A stretch of DNA of 64,000 nucleotides from a virus (Duplodnaviria > Caudoviricetes), in the IMG/VR virus record IMGVR_UViG_3300022746_000016, positions 102,548-166,547 of that record; one strand, 5' to 3'. Below, piece by piece: positions 6,692-21,706 of the stretch. The stretch's first letter is position 1. Each line of letters begins with the position of its first letter. The position numbers were made by a program, and so were the translations under genes. A model generated the notes under the pieces. It was given only the letters and a program-made list of their open reading frames with translations. It had not been told where the DNA came from and did no database searches.

Positions 6692-7270
6692 TTATAATTC
6701 GTAACCAAACTGTTCAAAATCTTTCTTGTAGTAAAGACGAACCATATCTCTAGTCTCATCATCCCATTCAACCTTTTGTTTCGGATGGGAGTTGACTGTT
6801 TGTAACTTAACACCAAGACGACTTTCCAGAGGCTCCAAGTTTTCATACTTGAATATCTCAATCGGATAATCGCAGTCAATGAACATACTCTGAGTTCGGC
6901 TGATGCTGTCTGTAGAATTCTTAGTTCGATTAAACAGCACGTACTTTAACCATGGCTTGAAATCAAAATTCATATATGCCACGTAGTCTTGGTAGTCAGC
7001 TTTCTTCTGTTGTAAAGAATATGTATCATAGTAATCTTTGTACATAATCCTAGAGTAAGAAAAGATAGACTCGACTCTGTCGTATGGGTTTCTTGCAATA
7101 CAAAAAGAGAAGTCGGGTTTATACTTATGATACTCGCAACGATTAACCAAAGTAGATAAGAAATGGTGATTGTTCATCCACTTCTGATAGTTGATGTCTG
7201 GACTATCAATCATAGCATGGCGGACAGCAGAGCCAGCATTCTTAGGTATATGTAAAAATAGAACGTTCAT
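6692..7270 (-). CDS. Sulfotransferase (Sulfotransfer_2 / carbohydrate sulfotransferase-like)
   Basis: 5'-PSB motif FLHIPKNAGSA, 3'-PB motif RNPYDRVES, and C-terminal YKKDFEQFGY. Confidence 0.85.
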   Translation of the reverse strand: MNVLFLHIPKNAGSAVRHAMIDSPDINYQKWMNNHHFLSTLVNRCEYHKYKPDFSFCIARNPYDRVESIFSYSRIMYKDYYDTYSLQQKKADYQDYVAYMNFDFKPWLKYVLFNRTKNSTDSISRTQSMFIDCDYPIEIFKYENLEPLESRLGVKLQTVNSHPKQKVEWDDETRDMVRLYYKKDFEQFGYEL

Positions 7271-7806
7271 TTCTTATGTGGTACGTCAAATACAAAGGTT
7301 ACACGAACACAGTCGCCTATGTTCTTAGTCCCATGGGGTAGTTTATTGTTGAACCATAGCAGGGTTCCAGGTTCTACCGTAACAGATTCATCTCCCACTG
7401 TGTATATGTATCTGCCTTGGATGGACAGATGATAGCGGTCTCTAGTTTGGTAGTAACTTCCAATATCAATGTGCGTTCCAACTTCTCCACCAACTGGCAG
7501 AGATAGGAAACCACATCGACTGACTTTCTTAAAGTGTCGCTTAACGAAGCCAATGACTTCTGTGTGGTGTTGAATAGCTGGAGTTGGAATACAATACTCT
7601 GTGTCTCCAACGTACTGGTCTATATGTTCAACACCACCCATCACAAGCTGCAATACACCAGCTTGAACTTCGGGGAATCCATATGAGAGCATGGACTTAA
7701 CTCCATCTACTCTTTTCTGAACTCCCCAGTCCTCTGGGTATTTTTCTAACTGTGCCAAAATCTTTGACACATTTAAACCAGTCTTAATGATTCTAATGTT
7801 CTTCAT
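7267..7806 (-). CDS. Aspartyl/asparaginyl beta-hydroxylase-like 2OG-Fe(II) oxygenase
   Basis: HID...RYHLSI...LWFNNKLPH...RVTFVFD pattern. Confidence 0.8.
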   Translation of the reverse strand: MKNIRIIKTGLNVSKILAQLEKYPEDWGVQKRVDGVKSMLSYGFPEVQAGVLQLVMGGVEHIDQYVGDTEYCIPTPAIQHHTEVIGFVKRHFKKVSRCGFLSLPVGGEVGTHIDIGSYYQTRDRYHLSIQGRYIYTVGDESVTVEPGTLLWFNNKLPHGTKNIGDCVRVTFVFDVPHKK

Positions 7807-7841
7807 AGTAATCCAAAAAGGTTAAATTCCTATATACTTAT

Positions 7842-8426
7842 ATGAAACCATTTACCTACCTTATTAAGTGTATCCCAACTAACCAAGTTTACTATGGTGT
7901 TCGGTACTCATCAAACTGCCACCCAGACCAACTCTGGAACTCATACTTCACATCATCTAAAAGAGTTCATACTCTAATCGAAAAATATGGAGTAGAAAAC
8001 TTCCAAACTCAGATAAGAAGGACATTCTTAACTGCAGAAGAAGCGGTTAGATGGGAGACTAAAGTCTTATCTAAACTTAATGCTGCTAAGTCAGAGGTCT
8101 GGCTAAACTGTCAAAATGGAGACTACAAGTTCAAAAACAAAGGTGGATATAAACTACCAGAGTCTAAGAAAACTAATTTTAGAAAACCTAAAAGCGAGTC
8201 CCATAAACAGTCTATGAAAGATCGTTACAAAGTAAAACATAAACATTATAACGACGGTAAAAAGTCTTATTATCTTCCAGAAGATTCCCCTCTAATAACA
8301 GAGTTAAACCTAAAAGAAGGACAAGTTATAACAAAATGTCCACATTGCAGTAAAGAAGGTAAACTAAACGCAATGCTTAGATGGCACTTCAATAACTGCA
8401 AGACATCACCCGAAAAAACCCTCTAA
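7842..8426 (+). mobile_element. Free-standing Seg-like GIY-YIG homing endonuclease (antisense, overlaps the gp43 3' end)
   Basis: PFTYLI...YYGVRY...YFTSS...EEAVRWE...WLN; C-terminal CPHC...RWHFNNC; opposite strand to neighbours. Confidence 0.8.
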
Positions 8427-10892
8427 CGAACTTTCCTCTTGCGTCTTCCAACCTAGTGGCTCAATGACAATTTGTAAGGCATCCAAGAATACCTTTTCGA
8501 ATTGTTTGTCATAGTCAATATATGTATTCAATCCAAATTCGGCAGGTAGCTCTTGGCTGAACGCAATCACATCTTCCTGCAGAGGATTCGGAGTACGAAC
8601 ATACACGAACTTGATCTTATCACCATCTCGGATCGCAGCGTACTTCTTATCAAGTCCATGCTTCTTGATGTAGTGGTTATAAAGTAACGCACCACGAACA
8701 TGGATTGGAGTACCCTTCGTATAAATTGGAGAACCAGCATACTGTTTCATACCGTTGACACCACGAGGGAATGCTACGTCAGCTAGAGGCATCTTGTCAA
8801 AGTCCATCTTGAAGTCTGTGACATACTTATGGAGTTTCTTTTCATCACCTTCTAGAATAACACTAATGGAATCCTTTAGCTTGTCGCGGATGACGGCTGG
8901 AGTAGATGACTTGACCATCTCAAGACCCATAACCTTAACCTTAGGCTTAGCGAACTGCACACCTTCGGAGTTATGGACGTTCATAATGTATCGCTTCTTC
9001 GCAGTCCAGATGGCTTTGTCAGCAAGAACTTCTCGCTTCATAACCATCTTCTGAGAATACGCATTCATATATTGAGCCAATTCCTGATAACCAGTATCAA
9101 TGAATGGTTGGAAAATCTCTTCACAGACTTTGTCCATGTACTTGATCTTCTGTTCAGTGGTCTTACCAGCACAAGTATGTTCAACCAGAGTTTCCAGAGT
9201 CAGGTAGATTGAGTCAGTATCGATCGCAATAATGTAATCTTTACCTTCAGTCTTCATCACCTTGTTCATATATGCATTGATCTTGTTAGCCATCCAACGA
9301 ATGGACAACTGACCCGATGTAGTAATACCCTCAGCCATACGAATATCGAAGTATCGGAAATACTGATTACCCATCGCACCGTAAGCAGAGTTCAAAGCAA
9401 TCTTCATCGCCATCTGCAGGTTGTTCAGTCGGCTAATCTCTTTTAGGAGATGAACCTTTGACTTATCGTTCTGATACTCTTGTTCAACACCAAGCATCTG
9501 CTTCTTGAACTTAGAACGGTCTTTGTACATCTTCTCCATCAACTCGGGCATGAACCCTTTGATGTCTTTACGATAACACCAACCATTGGCAGTTACAGTT
9601 AGGTCTCGCTTGTGAGCGTAGCTAGTATCAACTTCTTGGTTGAGTAGCTTCTCAACAGTCACTGGGAGTTTCTCTGAAGTCAGAGTCTCTGGTGAAATGT
9701 TGTATTGCATAATCAAGTGAGGATACAATGAATTCAAGTCGAACGAAGCAACCCACTTGTGTAGACCAATCAATGGATCTTTAACGAACGCACCTTCAAA
9801 CTGAGCATCTTTACCAGAGTAAGACTTGGCTGGAATGACAATACCCTTTGCGCGCAGATGGTTATAGATGATAGAGTCCCACATACGTACCTGTGAGTAG
9901 ACATCTTCCATATTGATCTTGGCTTGGTAAGCCATGGTCAGATGCAATTCAAGCAGACGCATCTTATCGTCCATTCGGTCAACCAACTCTACGTCATGGA
10001 TGTTATACTCGACGAATTGTTGCCAATGGTTCGTGTAGAAGTCTTTGAATGATTCGCCTGGATTTTCTTTCTTGCGATCTCCAAGTTCTTGCTCGGCAAT
10101 GTAGTCAAGACGATATGACTCTTGCTTTTGGTAAGTGTACTTCTTGTAAAGTTCAAGGTAGTCCAGCTGAGCAATACCCACGATGTCATAATGAATCTCT
10201 TCATTACCTTTAATGAAAGTCTTACGCTCGTTGACATAGCCCCATGGACTAATCTTATTAGCAAAAGTCTCACCAAGTTCACGCGCAATTCGACGAACCA
10301 AATATGGCACGTCAAAAAAGTCAGTGTTCCAACCAGTAATGGCATCTGGATAGTTACCCTGCCAGAAAATCATAAACTCTTTAAGGAGTTGATGCTCTGT
10401 GGCACAGTTGATATAAACTAGATCGTCACGATTGTGAACGAACGCACCAACACCGAACGTGATGATACGCTTAGTGAATAGATCTTTAATCGTAATCAGT
10501 GTCACTTCTTCATTGGCAGTTTTGATATCTGGAAATCCAGATTCAGTCTTTGTCTCAATGTCGATAGTGAAGATCTTGAATAGATCCATGTCCCAGTTAA
10601 CAAGGGTGTCGTAAGTGTCGCTGAGATATTGGTAGGCGTAGTTGGTCTGTCCATAGACTGGAAAACCTTCGATACCTTCGTAACGTTTAATGAAGTCACG
10701 AGTCTCTCGAATAGATCCAGGCTTGACTTCATCAACGAATGTGCCCTCCAGTGTTTGCCACTTGGAGGGTTTCTTTGCTGGGACATAGAGAGTTGGGGAG
10801 AAGTCGATCTTACGTTTGTAAGGACGACCATTCTCGTAACCACGCACAAGGATCTTGTCCCCCATTGCGTGGGCTGATGTGTAAAATTCCAT
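8406..10892 (-). CDS. gp43: Family B DNA polymerase (T4 gp43-like)
   Basis: Exo I DIET, FDLNSLYP, KIALNSAYG, DTDS, KKRY; C-terminal SLEGFFG clamp peptide. Confidence 0.98.
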   Translation of the reverse strand: MEFYTSAHAMGDKILVRGYENGRPYKRKIDFSPTLYVPAKKPSKWQTLEGTFVDEVKPGSIRETRDFIKRYEGIEGFPVYGQTNYAYQYLSDTYDTLVNWDMDLFKIFTIDIETKTESGFPDIKTANEEVTLITIKDLFTKRIITFGVGAFVHNRDDLVYINCATEHQLLKEFMIFWQGNYPDAITGWNTDFFDVPYLVRRIARELGETFANKISPWGYVNERKTFIKGNEEIHYDIVGIAQLDYLELYKKYTYQKQESYRLDYIAEQELGDRKKENPGESFKDFYTNHWQQFVEYNIHDVELVDRMDDKMRLLELHLTMAYQAKINMEDVYSQVRMWDSIIYNHLRAKGIVIPAKSYSGKDAQFEGAFVKDPLIGLHKWVASFDLNSLYPHLIMQYNISPETLTSEKLPVTVEKLLNQEVDTSYAHKRDLTVTANGWCYRKDIKGFMPELMEKMYKDRSKFKKQMLGVEQEYQNDKSKVHLLKEISRLNNLQMAMKIALNSAYGAMGNQYFRYFDIRMAEGITTSGQLSIRWMANKINAYMNKVMKTEGKDYIIAIDTDSIYLTLETLVEHTCAGKTTEQKIKYMDKVCEEIFQPFIDTGYQELAQYMNAYSQKMVMKREVLADKAIWTAKKRYIMNVHNSEGVQFAKPKVKVMGLEMVKSSTPAVIRDKLKDSISVILEGDEKKLHKYVTDFKMDFDKMPLADVAFPRGVNGMKQYAGSPIYTKGTPIHVRGALLYNHYIKKHGLDKKYAAIRDGDKIKFVYVRTPNPLQEDVIAFSQELPAEFGLNTYIDYDKQFEKVFLDALQIVIEPLGWKTQEESSLEGFFG

Positions 10893-10925
10893 TAGTTCTT
10901 TCCGTACATTAGAAACATTAAAAAT

Positions 10926-10933
10926 TATAAATA
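10926..10933 (+). promoter_or_regulatory. T4-type late promoter TATAAATA for the endonuclease (probably leaderless mRNA)
   Basis: Exact TATAAATA ending 5 nt before the ATG at 10939; no SD sequence. Confidence 0.7.
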
Positions 10934-10938
10934 AAAGT

Positions 10939-11544
10939 ATGAAACCTACTATCCCATTTACCTATCTTATCCACTTCAAAGCGACAGACCAATATTATTA
11001 TGGTTCTCGATATAGAAAAGGATGCAACCCATCTGACTTATGGTCAGTATATTATACATCATCTAAAGTTATAAAACAACTAATCTTAGAACACGGTAAA
11101 GATGCGTTCACGGTATCTGTGAGAAAGATATTTAATACAGCAGAAGAGGCTAGAAAATGGGAATCTAGATTCTTAAATAAAGTCAAAGCAGCACAGTCAG
11201 ATAAATGGCTAAACAGGCATAACGGAGATGAGAAATTCTATGGGAGAGGGCACCATGGAAATTTGGGTAAAAAGTTATCACAATCCCATCGAGAAAATAT
11301 TAGCAAAGGGCAACTAGGAATAAAACGTGGTCCATTTTCTGAAGAACATCTAAGAAAAATATCAGAATATCGTCAGGGTAAGAAACATTCTCCTGAAGTA
11401 AAACAGAAAATGTCAGATTCTAGAAAAGGTATATCCAAGACGCTAAACTTAGTTACATGCCCGCATTGTGGTAAATCTGGCAAAGGTGGTAATATGACTA
11501 GATATCATTTCAACAGGTGTGCTCAGCTAACTGCTTTACCATAA
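10939..11544 (+). mobile_element. Free-standing Seg-like GIY-YIG homing endonuclease with NUMOD3-like repeats (antisense, overlaps the exonuclease 3' end)
   Basis: Paralogous N-terminus to 7842 (PFTYLI...YYGSRY...YYTSS); repeats GKKLSQSHRENIS / FSEEHLRKIS / GKKHSPEVKQKMS; C-terminal CPHC...RYHFNRC. Confidence 0.85.
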
Positions 11545-12095
11545 AGTAGTTGCATAGCATCATATGCGCAATCATGCACTGGATGGTGTTTGATAACTTG
11601 TGCTCGCTCGAAGTCTGGATGATCAACACCACAGTAACCATTTGTTGTGCCGTACAAGATATCTACTGCAGTGCGTACATCACGCCACTGTGCATATCCT
11701 GTCAACGGCTCCATGCCTAATTTTGTAGCCAATGAATCGATGGCTAACTGGTCAAGGGAACCACGTGCCCACATAGTTTGTTTACGTGAGTCTGGGTACT
11801 TGTTCATATAGTTATGAAGAATCGTCATACCATCTTCGGCTGAAACGTCTTCGCTAGATGGATCAAGGGAAACACGACGAACATACTCGTGTTGATTCTG
11901 CCACCACTCAAGTGTGGACAGAGTTACAGTGCGCCCGATCTTCGCCTGTTCTTTGGCTTTGAATTTCACAAAGCATGCTTCATCCAACATCTGCTGGTAG
12001 GATGGTTTCTTTTCTGGATCGAAATAGACCAATGCTGCAGATAGAACTACAGCATTGGACTCAACACCAAGTGTTTCAACGTCGAACATAAACAT
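11523..12095 (-). CDS. dexA: DEDDh 3'-5' exonuclease (DexA-like)
   Basis: FDVETLG, WARGSLD, WRDVRT, HHPVHDC. Confidence 0.8.
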   Translation of the reverse strand: MFMFDVETLGVESNAVVLSAALVYFDPEKKPSYQQMLDEACFVKFKAKEQAKIGRTVTLSTLEWWQNQHEYVRRVSLDPSSEDVSAEDGMTILHNYMNKYPDSRKQTMWARGSLDQLAIDSLATKLGMEPLTGYAQWRDVRTAVDILYGTTNGYCGVDHPDFERAQVIKHHPVHDCAYDAMQLLYGKAVS

Positions 12096-12097
12096 AA

Positions 12098-12304
12098 TTA
12101 AACCTCTCGGTTGCTAACGCAACTCTCAAATGTATCCCACAATTTATTAAATTTGATATCATACAAAGTCTTCAAACCGAGCAACAGATTAGCCAGTTGA
12201 TCTGGATCATTACCTTCCATTGACAATTCATATGCTAGCTGGATGTCATCAGTAACTTTCCATGCATCGAGGAGCTGCTGCTCTAAAACAAATCGATCAG
12301 TCAT
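12098..12304 (-). CDS. Hypothetical protein
   Basis: Start reassigned to MTDRF (12304); fits operon packing. Confidence 0.6.
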   Translation of the reverse strand: MTDRFVLEQQLLDAWKVTDDIQLAYELSMEGNDPDQLANLLLGLKTLYDIKFNKLWDTFESCVSNREV

Positions 12305-12704
12305 TGCTATTCTTTCTTGCTTGATATTCTGCTTCGTGTTTATCACACAGAGTGCGAATCCATCCACCACCACGTTGCTTACCAAGTTCACCGCAAGTTT
12401 CACATGTACGATTAGCCCAGTCTTCAGCCATCTGTACTAAACCACGAACGTAGTCATCTCCACCATCATAGTAGAAACGCAGTCCACCGAACTTCTCTTT
12501 AATCTGAGCCACAACTACCTGAGGTACAACTTGATCATTTCGGTTAGCCCAGTCAATGTGTTGTTGGATATTGGCACAAAGCACACTAATGATTGGCCAC
12601 CAACCTTTACCTATGGCAAAGCCACCATAAGCACCAACGAACATAGCAGGATATTCTTCCTCCATCCGTTTAGCAAAGGCGTCATACTCTTTCATATCAT
12701 CCAT
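12297..12704 (-). CDS. Conserved phage hypothetical protein with Zn-ribbon-like CxxC
   Basis: QIKEKFGGLRFY motif and CETCG...TLCDKH. Confidence 0.75.
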   Translation of the reverse strand: MDDMKEYDAFAKRMEEEYPAMFVGAYGGFAIGKGWWPIISVLCANIQQHIDWANRNDQVVPQVVVAQIKEKFGGLRFYYDGGDDYVRGLVQMAEDWANRTCETCGELGKQRGGGWIRTLCDKHEAEYQARKNSND

Positions 12705-12706
12705 TA

Positions 12707-13060
12707 TTATCCCCAAGTTCTATGATTTTCAGCGATGTGTTCAATACCATCATACTCTCCGATGTGCCAGTTAATTCCATCTGGGATTTCCACAACAGCT
12801 AACTCTGCGCAATCACCCCATGATGCCTCACCCATCTGCTCGACAACTTTCACGAGGTTTGGATCAGTCCGTTCGATCTCATACTCGCTCCAGTAGTTCT
12901 CATCAGAAATACTATCTCTGTAGTACTCGTAACGCATGATGCTTCGTTCTGGATACTTGTCCACAACGATCATGGTGATACCAGCCAGTGCTGCATACTT
13001 CACAATAGCCTCATGGCTCAAACCAAAGCCACCAAAGCAACGATTGATTACAACTTTCAT
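12707..13060 (-). CDS. Conserved phage hypothetical protein
   Basis: KVVINRCFGGFGLS...RTDPNLVKVVE...EYDGIE. Confidence 0.75.
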   Translation of the reverse strand: MKVVINRCFGGFGLSHEAIVKYAALAGITMIVVDKYPERSIMRYEYYRDSISDENYWSEYEIERTDPNLVKVVEQMGEASWGDCAELAVVEIPDGINWHIGEYDGIEHIAENHRTWG

Positions 13061-14352
13061 TTAATGTCCTTAGACGAGTCCGCAACTTCTTTGTCATCAC
13101 GAATCTCGAGAATGATAGGGAGGAACAAAGATTCTTCCCCAGCTTTGTTCTTGATTCTAGTATTATACTTGATCGCTGCGATCTTGTCAATTATTTCTTT
13201 ACCGAGAGTCTTGCGTTGGTCATCAGAGAAGCCAGAGCCAACTCGAACTTTAATTACACCATCGGCAGATTCACAGAGAATTGCACCAAGCATACCTGCA
13301 TACTTACCAGTACCTTCTTCGATACCTACAATCTTCAGATCGCATTCCAACTCACCTTTGAATTTGATCTGAGTCTTGGATCGTTTATCTTCCCAAACAC
13401 CACTGAGGTCTTTCAGGATGATACCTTCTTGACCCATGGACAGATATCGTTCGAAGATTACATTGGCTTCTTCGATATTCTGAACAACAGTCTTTTGGAC
13501 CAAATAAACTTTGTCTGGCTCATGAGTAGCCAGAAGATTAGCCAGAGTTTCGATTCGTTTCGAATATGGTGTACCACAGTATCCAGTTTCGAACATTACA
13601 TAAGGGATGATATCCCAAACAGTGGCACGAACCTTCGCTGCATCGGCTGCAGAGATTGTACCCTTGTTTGCTTTGTTAAGAATACCGTTGCCAGTTTGAC
13701 GATCGAGAATCTTGTCACCTTCCATGACCAGAAGTTCACCATCGAACACGCAGTCTATTGGACCAGCCATATCGATGAAGTCTTGTTCGAGGTTGCCAAG
13801 CAGTTGAATCTCTTTACCATTTCGGCTACGAAATTCGCATTTACCATCACGAACAATAGCGTTGAATCGCATACCATCCATCTTCAGCTGAACCATTGCT
13901 GGGAATTTAATCTTATCCACTAGCTTCTGCTCGAAAGGTGAGCAGAGCATAACAGGATATTCTATAATCAAACCCATCCACACATCATTGGCAGTAGATG
14001 CTTGCACACCACACTTCAGATCTTTCTGGATGATTCTCTCCATAACCTTAGCATCATCAGGCGAGAGGGCTTGTAGGATATTAGTTAAGTGGTCAATGGC
14101 TGCGTTACCAGTAACCAAACGCTCACGCAGATCGTAGAGAGCAGGGAGCATTGATGCTAATGAAGCAGGATGTCCAGTCGTGTTAGGTGTGTACGCTGGA
14201 ATCTTGCGTTGATAGAATTGAGTGAATGGACACAATGCCAGTCGAATCACTTCACGTAGCAACTCATTGTCTTTGTTTGCTTCCAACTGATCACGTTTGA
14301 AGTTGCGAGATGAGTTAGCAGCGAGGGATTCGAGGAATTTGTGGATGTTCAT
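13057..14352 (-). CDS. gp30: ATP-dependent DNA ligase (T4 gp30-like)
   Basis: KMDGMR adenylation motif, FDGEL, EGIILK, SLFLP. Confidence 0.95.
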   Translation of the reverse strand: MNIHKFLESLAANSSRNFKRDQLEANKDNELLREVIRLALCPFTQFYQRKIPAYTPNTTGHPASLASMLPALYDLRERLVTGNAAIDHLTNILQALSPDDAKVMERIIQKDLKCGVQASTANDVWMGLIIEYPVMLCSPFEQKLVDKIKFPAMVQLKMDGMRFNAIVRDGKCEFRSRNGKEIQLLGNLEQDFIDMAGPIDCVFDGELLVMEGDKILDRQTGNGILNKANKGTISAADAAKVRATVWDIIPYVMFETGYCGTPYSKRIETLANLLATHEPDKVYLVQKTVVQNIEEANVIFERYLSMGQEGIILKDLSGVWEDKRSKTQIKFKGELECDLKIVGIEEGTGKYAGMLGAILCESADGVIKVRVGSGFSDDQRKTLGKEIIDKIAAIKYNTRIKNKAGEESLFLPIILEIRDDKEVADSSKDIK

Positions 14353-14531
14353 TTTAACTCTTTGAATGTTCTATATTTGGTGTAGAAGGGCAGAGGCTTG
14401 GAAAACTTCTTCGTTGTCTTTGTATCGACATTGTAGAACGCAACCAGCTTGCACTTATCGTCAGTGACATAGTAGATGTGATTAGAAACCTTCTGGCTCC
14501 AATCCTTGGTTGTCTCTTGCAAGACTCTCAT
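14349..14531 (-). CDS. Small early hypothetical protein
   Basis: Start MRVLQE; ATGA-coupled. Confidence 0.6.
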   Translation of the reverse strand: MRVLQETTKDWSQKVSNHIYYVTDDKCKLVAFYNVDTKTTKKFSKPLPFYTKYRTFKELK

Positions 14532-14671
14532 TTCTTCATCCAAGTACGGGCACCAGATGGAGCCTTCTTTTTGGTTTCGATGACTTGGACTGTGCCACCA
14601 CGTTTGAGAAAAGCCTTCAATTGTTTTTCGGTTTCAGCACGCAACTCAGCTTTGGATTTTACTTGGAACAT
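14528..14671 (-). CDS. Small basic early hypothetical protein
   Basis: Start MFQVKS behind an AAGGGTG RBS; contains AFLKRGG. Confidence 0.55.
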   Translation of the reverse strand: MFQVKSKAELRAETEKQLKAFLKRGGTVQVIETKKKAPSGARTWMKK

Positions 14672-14684
14672 AGTCACCCTTTCA

Positions 14685-14882
14685 TTAAACAAAATCGTAC
14701 GCAGTTTCAGAACCAACTCGAGAGATGATTATACCACACTTCAACTTTTTAAGCAAGGCAGTTTCGAGTTTGACAGCTTCAGGTACTGAACACTCAACGA
14801 ACAGCGAACCGCAAGTAAACGATGCAGGAACATTACCCAAAACACTAGACACTTCAACCAACACGTCTTTTTCGAAACTCAT
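14685..14882 (-). CDS. Small early hypothetical protein
   Basis: Start MSFEKD behind AAGGA; first gene after the promoter. Confidence 0.6.
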   Translation of the reverse strand: MSFEKDVLVEVSSVLGNVPASFTCGSLFVECSVPEAVKLETALLKKLKCGIIISRVGSETAYDFV

Positions 14883-14913
14883 TTTCAGATCCTTTTCTCG
14901 ATTCATTAGATAT

Positions 14914-14993
14914 ATTATCGCTCAGAATCAAATAAAAGGCAACAACTAAATGCAATAACCCTACAATCCTGAGGGGATTGTAAGTTGTTGATT
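14914..14993 (-). promoter_or_regulatory. Early sigma70-like promoter with upstream palindrome and IHF-like site
   Basis: TTGCCT-17-GATAAT (14942-14914); CCCTAC-aatcc-TGAGGG at 14959-14975; AATCAACAACTTA on the minus strand at 14993-14981. Confidence 0.7.
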
Positions 14994-15004
14994 TATAAGG
15001 GATT

Positions 15005-16333
15005 TTAGAAGGCTTCTAGGACGTGTATAGGGAACACGTCATTCAGGGGCTGGAACCCCCACTCTGGGAGGTCGTAGGAACCTTTAGAGAGGCTTTTAGA
15101 GGGTCTTAGACCGATCTTAGGGTACAGGTCTTCGGTAAGCCACCAAGCATGCGAGATGACGATTTTAGAGCCTTCTTTTAGGTTTGCTCGGACATTCGTA
15201 AAGAACTTCAGGCGATCTTCTGAGGTGCAGTGGTTCAGAACGGAAAAGAGCAGGATGTAGTCGAACTTACCTTCGAACTGAAAATCTTTCACGACATATA
15301 GAGTTGGATTCTTTTCAGAACCTTCGGTTAGCTCTTTTGCAACTTTGATGAAGCTGTCGTTAAAATCAACGCCTGTGTAGTTCGATTCGTTCAAGTAAGA
15401 GATCAGATGTTCACCTGCTCTTAATGGACCACAACCAACATCAACCAGTTTGTGTTCTGGTTTTAATCCATTATCGATAAGAAGTTGAAGTTGGAACTGT
15501 CCTCGTTTATCCCATCGTTCTGCCTTACCACCAATCTGTTGTTTGTATGTTTCAGAATCAATGACTACTTTGCTATAGTCTTTCGGTAAACAGATAAAGG
15601 TATCATCAACGTAGTCATTGTTTGGTCCAGCAAAGTGAACAAGAACAGATCTTGGGTTTAGCTTATCACCAACAATAAGTTCACCACCGACTCTGTCTCG
15701 ATATAAGTCAGCCATCTTATCCATAAATCCTAAAGAAGAATCATACTTAACGATATACTCTTTTGGCCAGAATACTATGTCATGAGTCTTCTGAAGGTTT
15801 TGCCAGATGAATCTCTGCTCACCAAAGAATGGTGGGAACTTCTCTTTATACAAACCACTTTTAGAACCTAGATGATAATGCATCATCCAGTAGCTTGGAC
15901 GTTCTAAGAATTTCTGTAGCACATGGAGGTTGGATCCATCTGCTTTGAACTTTGATACACCAGAGTTAATAGGTGTGCCGATCTGATTCGTCCACCATCT
16001 GAATGCATATAACTGTTCGCCAGTATTGACTGGGTACTTGATAAGTTTCTCTGGATCTCCGATGAACACTTGATCAATATCCATAATGATAACTTCATCA
16101 TCAGAAGAAGCACCAATAAAGTTTGGATCGAAGAAACGAAGTTTGTTCCACTGTCTTTTTAAAAGAGGATCCTCACCAATAGGTATGACTACAATATTTT
16201 CGTCTAATCCAGAAGCATCCTCAGTCATACAAATGAATCGAATATCTGGAATGTGTTTGATGCTATTGTATAAACGATTCACATTCTTTGATGGGTACTT
16301 GGTACCATACTTGAGAGTACAAATGTGTATCAT
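15005..16333 (-). CDS. Glycosyltransferase (GT-A, DxD) fused to a class I SAM methyltransferase
   Basis: N-terminal CTLKYGTKY...WNKL...MDID...VHFAG; C-terminal LVDVGCG...GVD...FDYILLFSVLNH. Confidence 0.75.
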   Translation of the reverse strand: MIHICTLKYGTKYPSKNVNRLYNSIKHIPDIRFICMTEDASGLDENIVVIPIGEDPLLKRQWNKLRFFDPNFIGASSDDEVIIMDIDQVFIGDPEKLIKYPVNTGEQLYAFRWWTNQIGTPINSGVSKFKADGSNLHVLQKFLERPSYWMMHYHLGSKSGLYKEKFPPFFGEQRFIWQNLQKTHDIVFWPKEYIVKYDSSLGFMDKMADLYRDRVGGELIVGDKLNPRSVLVHFAGPNNDYVDDTFICLPKDYSKVVIDSETYKQQIGGKAERWDKRGQFQLQLLIDNGLKPEHKLVDVGCGPLRAGEHLISYLNESNYTGVDFNDSFIKVAKELTEGSEKNPTLYVVKDFQFEGKFDYILLFSVLNHCTSEDRLKFFTNVRANLKEGSKIVISHAWWLTEDLYPKIGLRPSKSLSKGSYDLPEWGFQPLNDVFPIHVLEAF

Positions 16334-16920
16334 TGTTCGTATCCAAACATTTCAAAATCTTGTTTAAAATAAGTTCTTACCATCTCTCGGCTTTCATCAT
16401 CATACATTTCTTCAGTTGGTTTTCTATCTGGATTGACACGTTCTTGTGGAACTACAATACCAGTCTCACGTTGGAATGTTTCCATATCTTCCATCTTGAA
16501 AATTCTAATATCAGATTTAGAATCCAAGTAACTGCTCTGAAGAAGAAAGTGGTGTGACACCGTAAGATAGTTGGCTAACTCGAATGTGTTAAAGTGAAAG
16601 AACTTTAACCACTCTTTGAAGTCTAAACTTAGAAATTTCTGATAAAACTCAATAGACTTTCTTCGCATAAAATGCGGTGGCTTGATATGTTTCTGTAAAT
16701 GGAAATATGTACTGACTGCTCTATCGTATGGGTTGCGCACGAACGTGAATGAGTAGTCTGGTGTGAAGTTATGGAACCTACATCTCGCCTCTAACTGTGC
16801 ATGAGTTAGATGAGATACCATCCACTCAATAGGAAAATTGTGATCAGGAGAATCTACAAGTGCCGTACGAATGGATGTCCCAGCTGTTTTTGGGATATGC
16901 AGGAACAGAACATTTTTCAT
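16330..16920 (-). CDS. Sulfotransferase (paralog of 6692-7270)
   Basis: FLHIPKTAGTS, RNPYDRAVS, FKQDFEMFGY. Confidence 0.85.
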   Translation of the reverse strand: MKNVLFLHIPKTAGTSIRTALVDSPDHNFPIEWMVSHLTHAQLEARCRFHNFTPDYSFTFVRNPYDRAVSTYFHLQKHIKPPHFMRRKSIEFYQKFLSLDFKEWLKFFHFNTFELANYLTVSHHFLLQSSYLDSKSDIRIFKMEDMETFQRETGIVVPQERVNPDRKPTEEMYDDESREMVRTYFKQDFEMFGYEQ

Positions 16921-16921
16921 A

Positions 16922-17839
16922 TCAAAGATGTTTAATTGGGATAACTTTCTTTTTAATAGAAATGTCTTGATTCATTGTAATGTACTGTTTTGTCTCAGGA
17001 CAAGATGAACATACATCTTCAGCAGTGTAAACAGTCTGCAAGAATTCTTCTACAGCAGAGTTATCATTAATATCTACACCATCATATTTTAAATATGGAG
17101 CCCACTCTGGATCATCTAGCTGTTCTTTAATAGCTAGCATATCTGAAAGGTACGCTGTATGAGAACACTTATATAATTTACCCTTATACAACTGAGGGCA
17201 ATTAGTCTCGCAGATCTTGAATGCTTTGTCTTTGTCAGAGTTAAATGGATAGACTTTATCACCTTCATACTTGATGATATGCCCCCAGATCTCTTTCTTA
17301 CGTTGCCATTCATTGGAGATCTCAATCCATCCAAAGTCTTGATCTTCATACAAAGTGTTTCTTCGCATGAACTTAATATTTTTGGCTATAGCTTTCTTAT
17401 AAAAATCTAAAACCTTCTCAGCAAGATTGTCTCTACTCTTATCACCTGGACCAACGTGGACTGATATTTTTAAAGTCATTCCACGTTCAACTAAATCAAG
17501 CAACCAATCGTCATGCTTATTAACATAGAAACCATTGGTCAACAACTTAACCTTCTTACCCTTTGAGATAAGATACTCACATACAGCTTTAGTGCCTTTG
17601 GGGTTGAGCAATGGCTCTCCACCAAGAATGTGGAATGTTCTTATCTCAGTTTTTTCTAGAAGGATTTCTAAGTCTTTGATAAGCTGTTCAATGTCTACAG
17701 ATTCGGAGACATCAACAAACTCTGAGTGATGAGAGCAACCAGAGCAAGTTAGGTTACATCCCATATGTGTATGGACATTTAGACGTTCTAAATTTCCACC
17801 ATACTTTTCTAGTATGGATTTTGCAAGATCGCCTTGCAT
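16922..17839 (-). CDS. Radical SAM protein
   Basis: CNLTCSGC (CxxxCxxC), LGGEPLL, TNG; C-terminal Cys cluster (CETNC...YKC...CSSC). Confidence 0.9.
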   Translation of the reverse strand: MQGDLAKSILEKYGGNLERLNVHTHMGCNLTCSGCSHHSEFVDVSESVDIEQLIKDLEILLEKTEIRTFHILGGEPLLNPKGTKAVCEYLISKGKKVKLLTNGFYVNKHDDWLLDLVERGMTLKISVHVGPGDKSRDNLAEKVLDFYKKAIAKNIKFMRRNTLYEDQDFGWIEISNEWQRKKEIWGHIIKYEGDKVYPFNSDKDKAFKICETNCPQLYKGKLYKCSHTAYLSDMLAIKEQLDDPEWAPYLKYDGVDINDNSAVEEFLQTVYTAEDVCSSCPETKQYITMNQDISIKKKVIPIKHL

Positions 17840-17841
17840 GA

Positions 17842-18123
17842 TTAAGGCATCACGTTAGCGATCTGGATTCCTGTACCGAAACGAGAGCTATACTCATTTC
17901 GCATTTCTACTGCTGGTTCACCTTCTGATGCAATTGCTGACTTATTCAGATAGATTTTACCATCAACGTATGGCATGTATGGTGCCAGTCCTACGCTAAT
18001 GCCAGAGTCTGTTGGTTGTAATACGATATTAGCTGCGTTGTCTAAATGATAACCACTATCAGAAGATGAGGATACATCAGCAATAAGTTCTTCACCATTA
18101 ATCAATTTAAATACTTTAATCAT
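17842..18123 (-). CDS. Conserved T4-like hypothetical protein (Sm-like fold suspected)
   Basis: KLINGEELIA...GLAPYMPY...FGTGI. Confidence 0.7.
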   Translation of the reverse strand: MIKVFKLINGEELIADVSSSSDSGYHLDNAANIVLQPTDSGISVGLAPYMPYVDGKIYLNKSAIASEGEPAVEMRNEYSSRFGTGIQIANVMP

Positions 18124-18124
18124 T

Positions 18125-18328
18125 TCATTCCTCTATAACAAGTTGTTCAATAAAATCTGCTGCTGCGTTTTGGTCTTGGAAAAACTTTATGTGAGTAGTT
18201 TCCATATCGAAGCAGTGTTGTGCGACTACCATAATCTGTTTGTTCTTATAAACAGATACCTTGAGTATCCAATCGCCACGTCGGACGGTGACGAACGAGA
18301 TAAGGTTGGGTGATAGTCTTGCTTTCAT
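18125..18328 (-). CDS. Hypothetical protein
   Basis: 67-aa ORF directly after a TAAATA late-promoter motif. Confidence 0.65.
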   Translation of the reverse strand: MKARLSPNLISFVTVRRGDWILKVSVYKNKQIMVVAQHCFDMETTHIKFFQDQNAAADFIEQLVIEE

Positions 18329-18334
18329 ACCTAA

Positions 18335-18341
18335 TATTTAG
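18335..18341 (-). promoter_or_regulatory. Late-promoter-like CTAAATA ahead of the 18328-15005 operon
   Basis: Same CTAAATA motif that precedes gp3, gp18 and fibre genes; ATG 6 nt downstream. Confidence 0.55.
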
Positions 18342-18898
18342 GTACGATTACGTCTCCAGTAGAAGTCGAAAGCATTATAATTTGTTTTTATGATCATATC
18401 ATAAACTGCCATTCTATCTAAATATGCGTCTTTCATCACTGTCGCTGTGGTTGCTGGTTGGATGCCGACTGTAGCATCGGACTCACCATACTCACTAACG
18501 ATCGTCATCTCATTCTTGCTGGCGATATGACGCATGGCTTTGTTCTCAGTCAAGCAGTGCATAAACACTTCCTTGATGCCTTGAGTGCGTAACCAAGTTA
18601 CTGCACGATCGAACATCTCTTGAGCTAATCCATTACCACGATATTGTTTATCTACAGAACAACCAAGTTCGGCATCAGAATCTTTAACTGCTGCGTGACA
18701 AGCAGCAATAATATTACCATCAACATCTTCACAACCAAACCACTTTGACTCGTCATTGAATGAAGAGTGGATGTAGTTCTCTATAAAGTTATCAGAAACC
18801 ATCGCACCAAAACGTAGGCGACGATCTTCTCCCTGTAGCGATGTTAAATGCGCAACAAGTTTGTCTTGATCTATTTGAGTTAATTTTCTTGGAATCAT
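18338..18898 (-). CDS. GNAT acetyltransferase
   Basis: DRRLRF, AELGCSVDKQYRGNGLA, CLTENKAMRHIA. Confidence 0.85.
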   Translation of the reverse strand: MIPRKLTQIDQDKLVAHLTSLQGEDRRLRFGAMVSDNFIENYIHSSFNDESKWFGCEDVDGNIIAACHAAVKDSDAELGCSVDKQYRGNGLAQEMFDRAVTWLRTQGIKEVFMHCLTENKAMRHIASKNEMTIVSEYGESDATVGIQPATTATVMKDAYLDRMAVYDMIIKTNYNAFDFYWRRNRT

Positions 18899-18906
18899 AA
18901 TTGATG

Positions 18907-18926
18907 ATGGGGACTTGCGTCCCCAT
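18907..18926 (-). terminator. GNRA-loop hairpin (weak terminator or RNA-stabilising stem)
   Basis: ATGGGGAC-GCAA-GTCCCCAT with no long U-tract. Confidence 0.55.
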
Positions 18927-18930
18927 TCTT

Positions 18931-19089
18931 TTAAGCCATTTTGTTTCTTAACGCTCTCGCATAATACTGTCGTTCGAGTTGTTCGACATGCATTGGTGTC
19001 TGAGGGTCATGAGCTAAAATGTATTCTTCTAAAGTTTGGGATCTATCACGGAACACATAAACAAAGAATTGTTTTAGTGCTTGTAACAT
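18931..19089 (-). CDS. Small hypothetical protein (52 aa)
   Basis: Manual translation MLQALKQFF...EEYILAHDPQTPMHVEQLERQYYARALRNKMA*; TAATG-coupled to hsp20. Confidence 0.65.
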   Translation of the reverse strand: MLQALKQFFVYVFRDRSQTLEEYILAHDPQTPMHVEQLERQYYARALRNKMA

Positions 19090-19577
19090 TATTCACCTTC
19101 GTTTAGAAGTTGCTTGCCTTTACCAGCCTTAACTGGAACCTTCTTAGCTTTTTGCTCTTCTGGTACCAATTTGTCCAAAGCGATCTTCAAGATGCCATTG
19201 AACAACTCAGCGTCCTTAACTTCATAAGAATCACCGATAGCCCATGCACGAGTGAACGCACGGTTGGCGATACCTTTGAACAAATAGTCAGCAGTCTCAT
19301 CTACATCAGTAGACTGAGTATTGCCTTTAACGATTAGCTTACCACCGTCGATTGTTACGTCGATTTCGTTTGTGGCGAAACCAGCTACAGCAATCTCGAT
19401 TGTGTAAGTGTTACCGTCTTTACGGACATTGAATGGTGGGTAGTTTGGGATGTCTTTAGTCAAGTCATCATGCAATGCTTGCATGCGTTTGAATTGGTCA
19501 TCGAAACCGACAAACACTTTGTCGAAGTCTTTGAAAAGGTCTTGGCTAAAGAATGCAGGTACGAATGATTTCGTCAT
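19089..19577 (-). CDS. hsp20: Small heat-shock protein (Hsp20/IbpA-like)
   Basis: NYPPFNV, IEIAVAGF, YLFKGIANRAFTR, NGILKIAL; start MTKS behind AGGAG. Confidence 0.93.
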   Translation of the reverse strand: MTKSFVPAFFSQDLFKDFDKVFVGFDDQFKRMQALHDDLTKDIPNYPPFNVRKDGNTYTIEIAVAGFATNEIDVTIDGGKLIVKGNTQSTDVDETADYLFKGIANRAFTRAWAIGDSYEVKDAELFNGILKIALDKLVPEEQKAKKVPVKAGKGKQLLNEGE

Positions 19578-19729
19578 TTGAGTTTCTCCTATTAAGCGAG
19601 TAAGTGATAAAAATTGTCTCCTCGAAAGCAAGACAGTGCTGGTTACTTTATCCAGCGGCAATTAACGAATGCCAGTGAAATCTCTCGGACGCCTATACCG
19701 TAGACGACAACAGCCCTAAGGTGGGTTCT
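19578..19729 (-). ncRNA. Structured 5' leader of hsp20 with ROSE-like thermometer hairpins
   Basis: Several stems; UCGCU...AGGAG pairs over the SD, and a second UUGCU-UUCG-AGGA hairpin lies just upstream. Confidence 0.55.
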
Positions 19730-19909
19730 TTACGCTGCTGTTTGGGCAGCTTTTGCAGCAGCTTGTGCTTCTGCTTCTAATGCTTGTGCTTGTGGGTCGC
19801 CCTGTTCTTTAATCTTACCGATCAAAGCTACAACCTCATCGAATGGGTGTTTACCAAGTGTACGAAGAATAGTATTTACTTCTGCAATAGTCAATTCAAG
19901 TTTAATCAT
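19730..19909 (-). CDS. Small hypothetical protein (59 aa)
   Basis: Manual translation MIKLELTIAEVNTILRTLGKHPFDEVVALIGKIKEQGDPQ...AAQTAA*. Confidence 0.7.
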   Translation of the reverse strand: MIKLELTIAEVNTILRTLGKHPFDEVVALIGKIKEQGDPQAQALEAEAQAAAKAAQTAA

Positions 19910-19948
19910 TTTGTTTTCTTTCCTATGTTATAGTGAAATTCCCAATGT

Positions 19949-20016
19949 TATAAATATTGGTATGGGTCACGAGATTGCCGTCTCTACCCATTCTAGATCT
20001 ACTTAGGAGAACCAGC
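19949..20016 (+). promoter_or_regulatory. Late promoter TATAAATA plus hairpin leader of the endonuclease
   Basis: TATAAATA at 19949-19956; ATGGGT...GAGA-ttgccg-TCTC-T-ACCCAT stem; AGGAG SD before the ATG at 20017. Confidence 0.65.
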
Positions 20017-20580
20017 ATGAGTATTTATTCAATCTATACCGCTACCAACAAAATAACAAAGAAAGTTTATGTTGGTTTCGCAACCAACTTCCATCAAAGA
20101 GTACTTCGTCATAAAGCACTCTATCCAAATTCCCCAAAGAAACTATACACAGCTATACGAAAATATGGCTGGGGTGCTTTTCTATGGGAAGAGATTTATG
20201 TTTCTACCGATAAAGAGCACTGTCTTAATGCAATGGAGCAGTTCTTTATAGAGGAATTTGATTCCATCAATTCTGGCTATAATACCACGAAAGGTGGAGC
20301 AGGAGTCCTTGGTGTTAATACCGAAACTGTTTGGATAAATGACGGTAAAAATCACAAAAGAGTTAAATTCAACTCACCGATACCAGAAGGATGGGTTCTT
20401 GGTAGAACCAAAATTTCTCGTAAAGTTAAAATGTCTAATGAATCAAAACAAACTATTAGTCATAAAAACAAAGAGCATGGCGTTTTTGCTAAACTGAATT
20501 GTCAAAAATCTCCATGCCCCCATTGCGGTATCTTTATGAATCTAGGTAATTTAACTAGACACATAAAGGCGAAGCACTAA
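20017..20580 (+). mobile_element. Free-standing GIY-YIG homing endonuclease (antisense, abuts the regA stop)
   Basis: SIY...VYVG...R...E...GYN core; WINDG...IPEGWVLGR motif; C-terminal CPHC...RHIKAKH. Confidence 0.85.
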
Positions 20581-21000
20581 TCACTTAGCTTTCTTACCGA
20601 TATTGTACTTGGGTACTAATTCCCACTGGTCTTTTTCTTTATAAGAGACCACCTTAATTTGAGATAGCGAAGCCTTTTGATCAGCTTGCGTAGTATTTAG
20701 GATCTTTAACAGATCCCAGTCCTGTAACAAACTAGCAATTGCGTTACGTCTCTCGATATCACCTGCAGTGATATTCGATTCTTTACCATCGAGCGCAAAC
20801 AATTCCTTGAAGTGCACGATGAAGTACCGACCTTGCTTATGTAAGATATGGCAAGATTGGTATAGCTTTTGTTCTTTTCTTGAGGCAATCCCGATACGGG
20901 TTAGAGTTTCACGAACCTTCAGAAATGCATCTGGTTCAGGCAACGTCACCTCGAGCATGGACTCAGGAGTCCAGTCGTAATAAATCACTTCAACAGTCAT
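20581..21000 (-). CDS. regA: Translational repressor RegA
   Basis: FLKVRETLTRIGIAS, LYQSCHILHKQGRYFIVHFKELF, PKYNIG. Confidence 0.97.
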   Translation of the reverse strand: MTVEVIYYDWTPESMLEVTLPEPDAFLKVRETLTRIGIASRKEQKLYQSCHILHKQGRYFIVHFKELFALDGKESNITAGDIERRNAIASLLQDWDLLKILNTTQADQKASLSQIKVVSYKEKDQWELVPKYNIGKKAK

Positions 21001-21386
21001 GATTTTCCACCTTTGTATAATTTTTCTTTTATCATAATCAAGTGTTCATCGGAAAGGACACTCAGTGCCTCTTTCGCCTTTTCGCTTGAATACCCATAGT
21101 ACTCTTTTACGAGTTCTAAAGAAGCAGACTCAGCGTCGGCTTTTGCCCATTTACTGAAACGACGCTTCTTCGAAATAGTATTTAGGAAAAAAGAAAATTG
21201 CCAGTCAGGTGGGCATTGGTGATGTTGGTTCATCGAGTTTGCCTGCATAACTGTATCGGGGAAATATCCCAAGGCTCGGTTCACAATAAACTTCACCTTG
21301 TTATAGTCTTTAACTGCTTCTGGATCTCCTGCTAGTAAATCAACTTTGGTTTCGTTGATGGCTTTCACATAGTCGAATGGGCTCAT
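20997..21386 (-). CDS. gp62: Clamp loader small subunit
   Basis: IVNRAL, KRRFSKW, VKEYYGYS; position before regA. Confidence 0.92.
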   Translation of the reverse strand: MSPFDYVKAINETKVDLLAGDPEAVKDYNKVKFIVNRALGYFPDTVMQANSMNQHHQCPPDWQFSFFLNTISKKRRFSKWAKADAESASLELVKEYYGYSSEKAKEALSVLSDEHLIMIKEKLYKGGKS

Positions 21387-21706
21387 TTAGCAAACCCAAC
21401 TTCCTTCAGATTCTCTGGAGTAGCAGCGAATCTTGTATCTGGAAAACGAGATGCCAGAGAGTCTTCTAACTCTTTACGAGTTGGAGCCTGAGCCATAAAC
21501 TCATCGGTCTCTTTATTGAAGACATAGTATTGACCACTATGTTGTTCGATCTTGATATTGATTAGCTCGTCCTCGATTTCTCCAAGGTCTTGGTCGAGTT
21601 GTTTCATTATGTAATCAACTCGACGCTTGGCTAACTCCTCGCGGAGAACCCAACCCAGAATAAAGCCTAATGCGAAAACGCCAAAGATAGACAAAAAATC
21701 TTCCAT
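21383..21706 (-). CDS. Hypothetical protein with N-terminal transmembrane helix
   Basis: FLSIFGVFALGFILGWVL; inserted between gp44 and gp62. Confidence 0.7.
   Translation of the reverse strand: MEDFLSIFGVFALGFILGWVLREELAKRRVDYIMKQLDQDLGEIEDELINIKIEQHSGQYYVFNKETDEFMAQAPTRKELEDSLASRFPDTRFAATPENLKEVGFAK

Follow-up and report, generated by a model that had tools for sequence, protein, structure and literature searches.

How can a selfish endonuclease gene settle in an operon whose genes overlap from stop codon to start codon and still leave the genes on both sides complete? This question is raised by a stretch of 64,000 nucleotides of a T4-like phage, hereafter the window, which represents bases 102548-166547 of the 166,547-bp IMG/VR virus record IMGVR_UViG_3300022746_000016 (rated 96% complete) and in which three genes for GIY-YIG endonucleases, here called HEG1, HEG2 and HEG3, lie antisense at the 3' ends of the genes for the DNA polymerase gp43, a dexA-like exonuclease and the translational repressor regA, respectively. 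It is highly probable that these genes are the cores of three mobile, free-standing homing-endonuclease cassettes, which colonised junctions without intergenic space. Each cassette is antisense to the early-gene operon and brings the upstream gene's last 5-13 codons in a diverged version, which keeps that gene complete and partly overlaps the 3' end of the nuclease gene itself on the opposite strand. In the dexA and regA cases the native tail is left at the far side of the cassette, where it may provide the next gene with its ribosome-binding stretch and its stop/start overlap, and in the gp43 case the cassette itself appears to supply a new ATG for the next gene.

Junctions without intergenic space

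The gene content of the window is T4-like, as Pfam and PHROG matches identified gp43, the dexA-like exonuclease, regA, a DNA ligase and Hsp20, and the public runs containing window sequence are labelled freshwater. The closest gp43 proteins from cultured phages, those of Synechococcus and Prochlorococcus myophages, are at most 53.3% identical, which likewise holds for marine single-cell viruses, and megablast of positions 7000-12500 against cultured phages returned a single 47-nt match and nothing else. With gp43 identity of at most 53%, cultured phages are of no use for junction comparison. The close relatives are uncultured contigs only, namely one set of 80 loci in which gp43 is 78-99% identical and one of 80 regA-bearing loci, and individual loci are given below with the prefix L.

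Within the cassette-free IMG/VR relatives, the three gene pairs overlap stop-to-start with zero intergenic space. The dexA-like gene ends in MLMYGKN and its stop codon overlaps the gp43 start as TAATG (61 of 80 loci); gp43 ends in SSLEDFFG and the TTG start of the following cupin gene lies inside those codons, giving an overlap of 8 nt (44 of 80 loci); regA ends in YNIGKKxK and overlaps the following gene for a 59-aa protein as ATGA (28 loci). The remaining loci show same-strand accessory genes, contig ends or other neighbours at these positions. Since the upstream stop overlaps the downstream start, no intergenic space was available for the cassettes, and their insertion points were found 5-15 codons inside the upstream gene rather than between genes.

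In the window, the genes concerned are all encoded on the minus strand: the dexA-like 3'-5' exonuclease (11523-12095, 190 aa) and the family-B polymerase gp43 (8406-10892, 828 aa) are followed by a cupin or Asp-Arg-hydroxylase-like gene (7267-7806), which starts with ATG AAG, and regA (20581-21000, 139 aa) is followed by the gene for the 59-aa protein, p59 (19730-19909), with which it overlaps translationally in cassette-free relatives. Each of the open reading frames (ORFs) of gp43, the dexA-like gene and regA ends in frame at a stop codon of its own.

Two of the junctions, gp43/cupin and dexA/gp43, are moreover hot spots for same-strand accessory genes in the relatives. The former holds an insert of 500-1199 nt in 19 of 80 loci, with ORFs of 191-223 aa in the nine that were inspected (L002, L019, L025, L044, L045, L062, L071, L073, L079), and the latter an insert of 225-509 nt after dexA in 17 of 80 loci, two of which were inspected (L013, L025). 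As further examples of the cassettes these inserts were rejected, the inspected ones (9 of 19 and 2 of 17, respectively) being same-strand genes that do not encode endonucleases.

Three antisense endonuclease genes

HEG1 (7842-8426, plus strand, 194 aa) encodes a SegE-like GIY-YIG protein with a C-terminal CPHC...H...C finger and stands tail-to-tail with gp43, the overlap being 21 nt. HEG2 (10939-11544, plus strand, 201 aa) combines GIY-YIG and NUMOD3 with a CPHC finger and overlaps the end of the dexA-like gene by 22 nt, again tail-to-tail, and HEG3 (20017-20580, plus strand, 187 aa) is I-TevI-like, possesses a C-terminal CPHC...H...H finger and abuts the regA stop codon. The family assignment is based on PHROG 314 ("homing endonuclease"), which is matched by all three (E = 1.7e-17 for HEG1, 5.4e-26 for HEG2 and 1.9e-19 for HEG3), and on the Pfam profiles, whereby HEG3 scores 25.2 bits against GIY-YIG (PF01541, cut-off 22.6), HEG2 24.1 bits against NUMOD3 (cut-off 20.4), and HEG1 and HEG2 reach 23.9 and 22.9 bits against SegE_GIY-YIG (PF19835), slightly below the cut-off of 25. 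HEG3 was aligned to the I-TevI catalytic domain (1MK0/1LN0, E = 0.003) with the SIY, YVG, R, E and N positions kept; a PDB sequence search with HEG2 gave no meaningful match. The C-terminus of each protein conforms to CPHC-x11/12-H-x3/4-C/H, a motif without a Pfam match.

Apart from these three ORFs, which are intact, all credible genes of the 64-kb window lie on the minus strand. Each of the remaining plus-strand ORFs of at least 110 aa is contained within a longer minus-strand ORF, and none of the four of them that were scanned has a PHROG family. Rfam returned zero matches at E<=1 over positions 7000-21500, hence no group I or group II intron is present. An earlier sequence-only reading of this DNA had described three GIY-YIG genes as its only credible plus-strand genes, tail-to-tail with gp43 (21 nt), dexA (22 nt) and regA (abutting), each with a CPHC zinc-finger-like ending and all of them intron-less. 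The ORF inventory and its coordinates, the family matches, the C-terminal motif and the Rfam result agree with this description throughout.

Replacement ends and retained native ends

When the working tails are compared with the nearest empty-site relative, the differences accumulate in the duplicated codons. The working tail of gp43 (8406-8423, minus strand) consists of the last five codons and the stop, is overlapped by the 3' end of HEG1 on the other strand and differs from the cassette-free form at every third base, whereby seven of eight tail codons are synonymously changed relative to L001, as compared to 214 of 803 in the whole gene. For regA, the tail of which (20581-20616, minus strand) reads VPKYNIGKKAK-stop, the comparison with L005 gave eight of the last ten codons synonymously changed and 23 of 114 over the whole gene. 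The tail of the dexA-like gene (11523-11552, minus strand), which reads QLLYGKAVS-stop, has four of five codons synonymously changed (9 of 21 nt) relative to L004, as compared to 20 of 182 in the whole gene, and it differs in protein sequence too, the native end being MLMYGKN-stop. It is nearest to a tail type of a distant clade: codons 179-187 agree at 22-23 of 27 nt with the tails, reading DAMQLMYGK, of a clade with an overall identity of 70-78%, and at 16-17 of 27 nt with the window's own clade (95-97% identity). Being nearer to a distant clade than to its own, the dexA tail is best read as a foreign allele brought by the element.

On the far side of two of the cassettes, the native gene end was found to be retained. 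The orphan dexA tail (10893-10919, minus strand) reads FLMYGKN-stop and overlaps the start of gp43 as TAATG; over the 19 nt adjoining the ATG it is identical to the 12 closest cassette-free relatives at all positions (24-25 of 30 nt overall), and the alignment score of 21 was reached by 0 of 2000 shuffles. The orphan regA tail (19906-19947, minus strand) comprises the segment 19906-19932, which reads YNIGKKTK-stop with the ATGA overlap and is identical to four cassette-free relatives at 27 of 27 nt, and a degenerate continuation at 19933-19947, through which the alignment can be followed, across two gaps of 3 nt each, as far as the W-E codons some 44 nt upstream. Its score of 26 was again reached by 0 of 2000 shuffles, and all 28 empty junctions are closer to this orphan than to the working tail (mean 24.5 vs 19.4 of 27). 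Both orphans retain a purine-rich GGAAAG stretch as well as the stop/start overlap of the next gene, which suggests that they still serve its translation initiation, and their left edges may be the original break points.

The gp43 junction is different. Here the 35-nt spacer between the starts of HEG1 and the cupin gene (7807-7841, minus strand) is at best a possible degenerate remnant of the gp43 tail, which it has only the 7-mer TTTGGAT (7811-7817) in common with, and the resemblance is not significant (p 0.20-0.35; p 0.61 at the protein level). The cupin gene starts with a new ATG AAG in all HEG1-bearing genomes and with TTG in the cassette-free L001, L008, L009 and others. As the new ATG resides within a tract that was transferred together with HEG1 (window 7795-7841; see below), the cassette seems to provide the downstream gene with a substitute start. 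A diverged tail together with a retained native tail matching a relative was thus found for dexA and regA, not for gp43.

The sequence-only reading had assumed that the cassettes supply replacement C-termini, that orphan copies of the old ends persist at no fewer than two of them, still coupled to the next gene, and that the working tails were synonymously recoded; it had named beforehand, among the results that would overturn it, cassette-free relatives matching the current tails. The relatives match the orphans instead, the divergence is confined to the duplicated segment, and the purine-rich stretch and the stop/start overlap are kept in both orphans. Their number is exactly two; for gp43 an orphan is not statistically detectable, the cassette bringing a new downstream ATG in its place. 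The recoding idea is too simple, since in the dexA tail the amino acids differ as well and the tail looks like a foreign allele rather than one recoded in place. As a whole, the sequence-only reading is largely right and goes too far on the recoding, on the gp43 orphan and on cleavage immunity.

Transfer of whole cassettes between diverged genomes

The HEG1 cassette was recently transferred as a whole unit between diverged backbones. Comparison of the window with L007 revealed a tract (7795-8417) with five mismatches in 623 nt (99.2% identity), which runs from the last four gp43 codons through the nuclease gene and the spacer to the new cupin start. In its flanks, 22 of 143 positions in gp43 and 20 of 95 in the cupin gene are mismatched, corresponding to 79-85% identity. 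A similar island was found for HEG3, which is 91% identical in L229: positions 19920-20639 are 88-97% identical per 40-nt bin, the flanks 55-80%, and the tract, which terminates within the orphan, reaches about 60 nt into the 3' end of regA. For HEG2, the comparison with L161, which encodes a 73% identical relative, gave no identity island, and a metagenome scan with HEG2 identified no relative closer than 49%. The mobility that the sequence-only reading had postulated is thereby borne out by the identity islands.

These islands bear on the possibility that the cassettes arose by a single illegitimate intergenic insertion which duplicated a few codons, followed by drift of the tail in place once the constraint of the overlapping start signal was lost, so that the tail would neither be carried by the element nor play a role in immunity. 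In favour of such an origin, the tails of empty sites appear to be under extra constraint, the third-base conservation of the regA tail among them being moderately raised (0.86 vs 0.73), and release from this constraint would speed change; likewise, the regA tail is only marginally nearer to a distant clade than to its own (26 of 30 vs 24 of 30 nt), a weak signal of foreign origin. Nevertheless, a tail-codon divergence of 80% is far above the whole-gene synonymous divergence of 11-27% from the nearest empty-site relative, and the dexA tail matches the distant clade far better than its own. Furthermore, the island shared with L007 covers the last four gp43 codons as well as the far-side spacer and that shared with L229 the regA 3' end. 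Insertion followed by drift is consequently considered improbable.

The distribution of the cassettes is patchy. HEG1 was found at the same place in four of 80 gp43 loci (L005, L006, L007, L015), HEG2 in none of the 80 gp43 loci and HEG3 in none of the 87 regA-bearing loci of the gp43 and regA relative sets. Run X3 holds short contigs of an empty-site relative, which lead from the gene for the 59-aa protein via 23 nt identical to the orphan to position 19932 and continue, as read from the consensus, into EKDQWELVPK of regA, and the same run holds a 421-nt contig about 90% identical to HEG3; taken together, this indicates that empty and filled alleles co-occur. Both presence/absence polymorphism and lateral movement with flanking DNA, as expected for free-standing endonuclease genes, are hence documented.

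The record being a metagenome assembly, a chimeric contig or spurious antisense ORFs could in principle have produced the layout. Contigs from runs X1 and X3, which may be the window's own source, cover positions 7000-14906 with zero mismatches and bridge HEG1 and HEG2, which argues against misassembly, and among the contig joints listed none skips a cassette. As the same cassettes also occupy the same junctions on independent IMG/VR contigs (L005, L006, L007, L015; L161; L229-L231) and the ORFs have family-level matches, an artefact of assembly or annotation is hardly credible.

Recurrence of the layout

The search of phage contigs for the same architecture, which the sequence-only reading had proposed as a check, identified it at further loci. 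In L161, the HEG2-like gene lies antisense on the dexA end with an overlap of 19 nt and an LMYG remnant at the far side (p 0.014-0.027). The antisense-plus-orphan layout on regA is also seen in L229, in L230 (nuclease 79% identical; working tail YNIGKKRSD-stop, orphan YNIGKKRND-stop) and in L231 (53% identical, the nuclease gene being broken into two ORFs; working tail beginning YNIGKKISS, orphan YNIGKKIKTEVNT-stop), whereby the orphan tests of L230 and L231 gave p 0.002-0.003. In a different phage group (L163/164, L165/249, L244), nucleases that are 44-53% identical to the HEG2 N-terminus are placed antisense on a small gene ending in ETYWSM-stop, and a YWSM-stop remnant is present beside the nuclease start (p 0.003-0.033). 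Clear independent contexts accordingly number three, namely dexA, regA and the ETYW gene, to which gp43 adds one without an orphan. Among 74 viral-contig homologues, 24 could be tested, six of these at p<=0.033, and four run off the locus; in a hand-set series, six of 12 cases reached p<=0.018, the other six being HEG1 of the window, L278, L243, L242, L233 and L162.

Several results count against the reading of the cassettes as carriers of spare gene ends, in addition to the weak signal of foreign origin and the raised third-base conservation of the regA tail and to the non-significant gp43 orphan. The p-values of the recurrence tests are uncorrected for multiple tests. Forty-six of the 74 viral-contig homologues, mostly remote and C-terminal-only matches, are without a convergent gene by the criterion applied, and in three cultured phages the homologues share the strand of the adjacent genes, which means that the layout is not a property of the whole family. 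No orphan was found in the three antisense relatives L203, L243 and L278, and those of L233, L162 and L242 are weak. Since loci sharing a cassette also share ancestry, the independent contexts amount to about three to four and not to ten. Finally, HEG1 is without the promoter-like box described in the following section, and the box of HEG2, 5 nt from the ATG, is a poor fit to a normal leader.

One relative lineage (L162:361-1984, L242:1432-3145) has nuclease-like ORFs on both sides of the dexA-like gene. One of them is antisense on the 3' end of the dexA-like gene, with a weak YFGKF-stop remnant before gp43, and the other, a relative of HEG2, is arranged head-to-head with the start of the dexA-like gene.

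Promoter-like boxes and the HEG3 leader

The exact sequence TATAAATA occurs five times in the 64 kb when both strands are counted, and the two plus-strand occurrences are located directly upstream of HEG2 (10926-10933, plus strand) and HEG3 (19949-19956, plus strand, an exact match), as the sequence-only reading had noted for two of the cassettes. These late-promoter-like boxes suggest late expression against the early operon. The HEG2 box is situated 5 nt from the ATG, so that either the late mRNA is leaderless or nearly so, or the box is not a promoter; the same spacing (10926-10941) is also present in L161 (~2475-2497). A promoter and terminator scan of 7000-21500 gave sites no commoner than in shuffles and no minus-strand terminator inside the cassettes.

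The 5' leader of HEG3 (19957-20016, plus strand) comprises a conserved hairpin at about 19957-19996 and AGGAG before the ATG. Together with the box, it (19949-20022) is strongly conserved in L229:2433-2506, L230:2433-2506 and L231:2374-2447, the proteins being 53-91% identical. Fourteen pairs are predicted for the hairpin, one of which is changed on both sides in L231 (G-C to U-A), and AGGAG is left uncovered. The predicted structure may have a regulatory role as an RNA hairpin or may bind a protein. A 7579-nt contig of run X1 matches the window only at the HEG2 start (10930-10948) and in the HEG3 leader (19951-19995, four differences), pointing to similar nuclease 5' regions elsewhere in that community, be it at further loci or in further phages.

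Intact ORFs, two late-promoter-like boxes facing the early operon and a conserved leader hairpin are also what would be expected if the three were domesticated, non-mobile antisense genes serving the phage through their products or their late antisense transcripts, for example in the shut-off of early genes or the degradation of host or competitor DNA, with the duplications being old scars. Such genes should not be missing from most close relatives, as these are, and the identity islands document recent lateral movement; in addition, the nuclease gene of L231 is split into two ORFs, as would be anticipated for a selfish element. Domestication is therefore held to be very unlikely.

A proposed homing route into overlapping genes

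For mobile cassettes with a spare gene end, a route can be suggested from known GIY-YIG homing (PMC2988022). During co-infection, the nuclease would cut a cassette-free genome at or near the junction, and the break would be repaired from the cassette-bearing genome, whereby the gene body would provide the homology to one side of it and the orphan with the next gene that to the other side. With its target split and diverged, the carrier would be shielded from its own nuclease as well as from deletion between the repeats. The nucleases would be made late from the TATAAATA boxes, once the early genes to which they are antisense are no longer needed. As to the duplications, illegitimate double-strand-break repair with one-sided homology is reportedly able to generate short ones in T4, as Parker and co-workers are said to have described in 1999.

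A wider reading, which we put forward tentatively and regard as less likely than its opposite, sees in these genes a GIY-YIG lineage specialised in stop/start-overlapped junctions, the cassettes acting as self-contained "junction adaptors" that introduce a foreign gene end and, in some cases, a new start codon as well. Such junctions would be good homing targets, being held constant by two genes at once. With every homing event, an essential protein would receive another C-terminal allele, an example being the conserved SSLEDFFG end of the polymerase, and the retained native half-site abutting the late promoter might, by analogy with I-TevI, be the nuclease's own operator.

The cassettes show a route by which selfish nucleases enter packed phage operons without introns, inteins or bypassing, namely by means of a spare gene end. 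Homing would thereby become an exchange route for C-terminal alleles of core replication and regulatory proteins between diverged phages, with consequences for the reading of mosaicism in "core" genes. Short orphan gene ends and antisense overlaps are also a trap for annotation. The three cassettes offer natural pairs of enzyme and target, the empty and filled sites of which are known from sequence and which are directly testable.

Relation to known elements

No description of this layout from a phage was found in the accessible literature, a search outside of which most subscription-journal papers and supplements lie, and the supplements could hold related detail. A T4 review calls free-standing nuclease genes intergenic, and the stem "duplicat" is absent from it (PMC2988022); in a study of ICP1-type phages, the stem is used solely for repeats inside nuclease genes (PMC10448857). 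The cassettes resemble the T4 seg and mob genes (SegA-G, MobE) in being intron-less GIY-YIG genes beside conserved genes, patchy in occurrence and inherited with their flanks; the T4 genes are driven by late or middle promoters, and segD is antisense as well (PMC2988022). Unlike the T4 genes, those described here interrupt the final codons of a gene, at a junction of zero length, are antisense and combine a carried tail with a retained native tail. In the autorepression of I-TevI, a sequence resembling the homing site overlaps the late promoter (PMC2988022); here the orphan half-site abuts the TATAAATA boxes, a likeness of position only.

The closest parallel is provided by the fungal mitochondrial mORFs with C-terminal duplication, reported for Allomyces atp6 and for Glomus atp6, atp9, cox2 and nad3 (PMC3630166; PMC6279837). 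There, too, an inserted, diverged foreign C-terminus completes the gene, and the native C-terminus downstream matches a close relative (PMC3630166). In the fungal elements, the inserted tail and the endonuclease ORF downstream of it share a strand and are often in phase, whereas here the ORF is antisense and overlaps or abuts the tail, and their duplications of 50-280 nt with the native copy as a pseudogene contrast with about 18-45 nt and a native copy that forms the start region of the next gene (PMC3630166).

Among phages, two cases come closest, namely the MobA/gene 60 cassette and the split nrdA gene of Aeromonas phage Aeh1, in which mobE gave rise to new tails. The former likewise carries a homologous replacement (HomR, 67-81% DNA identity) for the host coding sequence with the nick site, and HomR overlaps the endonuclease ORF out of frame, both moving as one unit; unlike the nucleases here, MobA belongs to the HNH enzymes and is encoded on the same strand, the gene is split in its middle, the native copy is deleted and translational bypassing is needed (bioRxiv 10.1101/2022.08.31.505936). 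In Aeh1, insertion-derived sequences have become functional tails of a host protein, yielding two polypeptides with new interaction tails, whereas the native protein end is reproduced here (PMC3045599). Both the fungal C-terminal duplication elements and the MobA/gene 60 cassette have a phage counterpart in the cassettes described here. What is new in comparison is the antisense overlap, the very short duplications, the position at a stop/start overlap and a retained copy that, judged from its sequence, probably keeps a function.

Two more small GIY-YIG-like genes were identified elsewhere in the same record, at G000:C1:69886-70086 (L237:1255-1764, minus strand, 169 aa) and G000:C1:24989-25252 (L238:1417-1812, plus strand, 131 aa). 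Both adjoin stretches without long ORFs, which might hold RNA genes.

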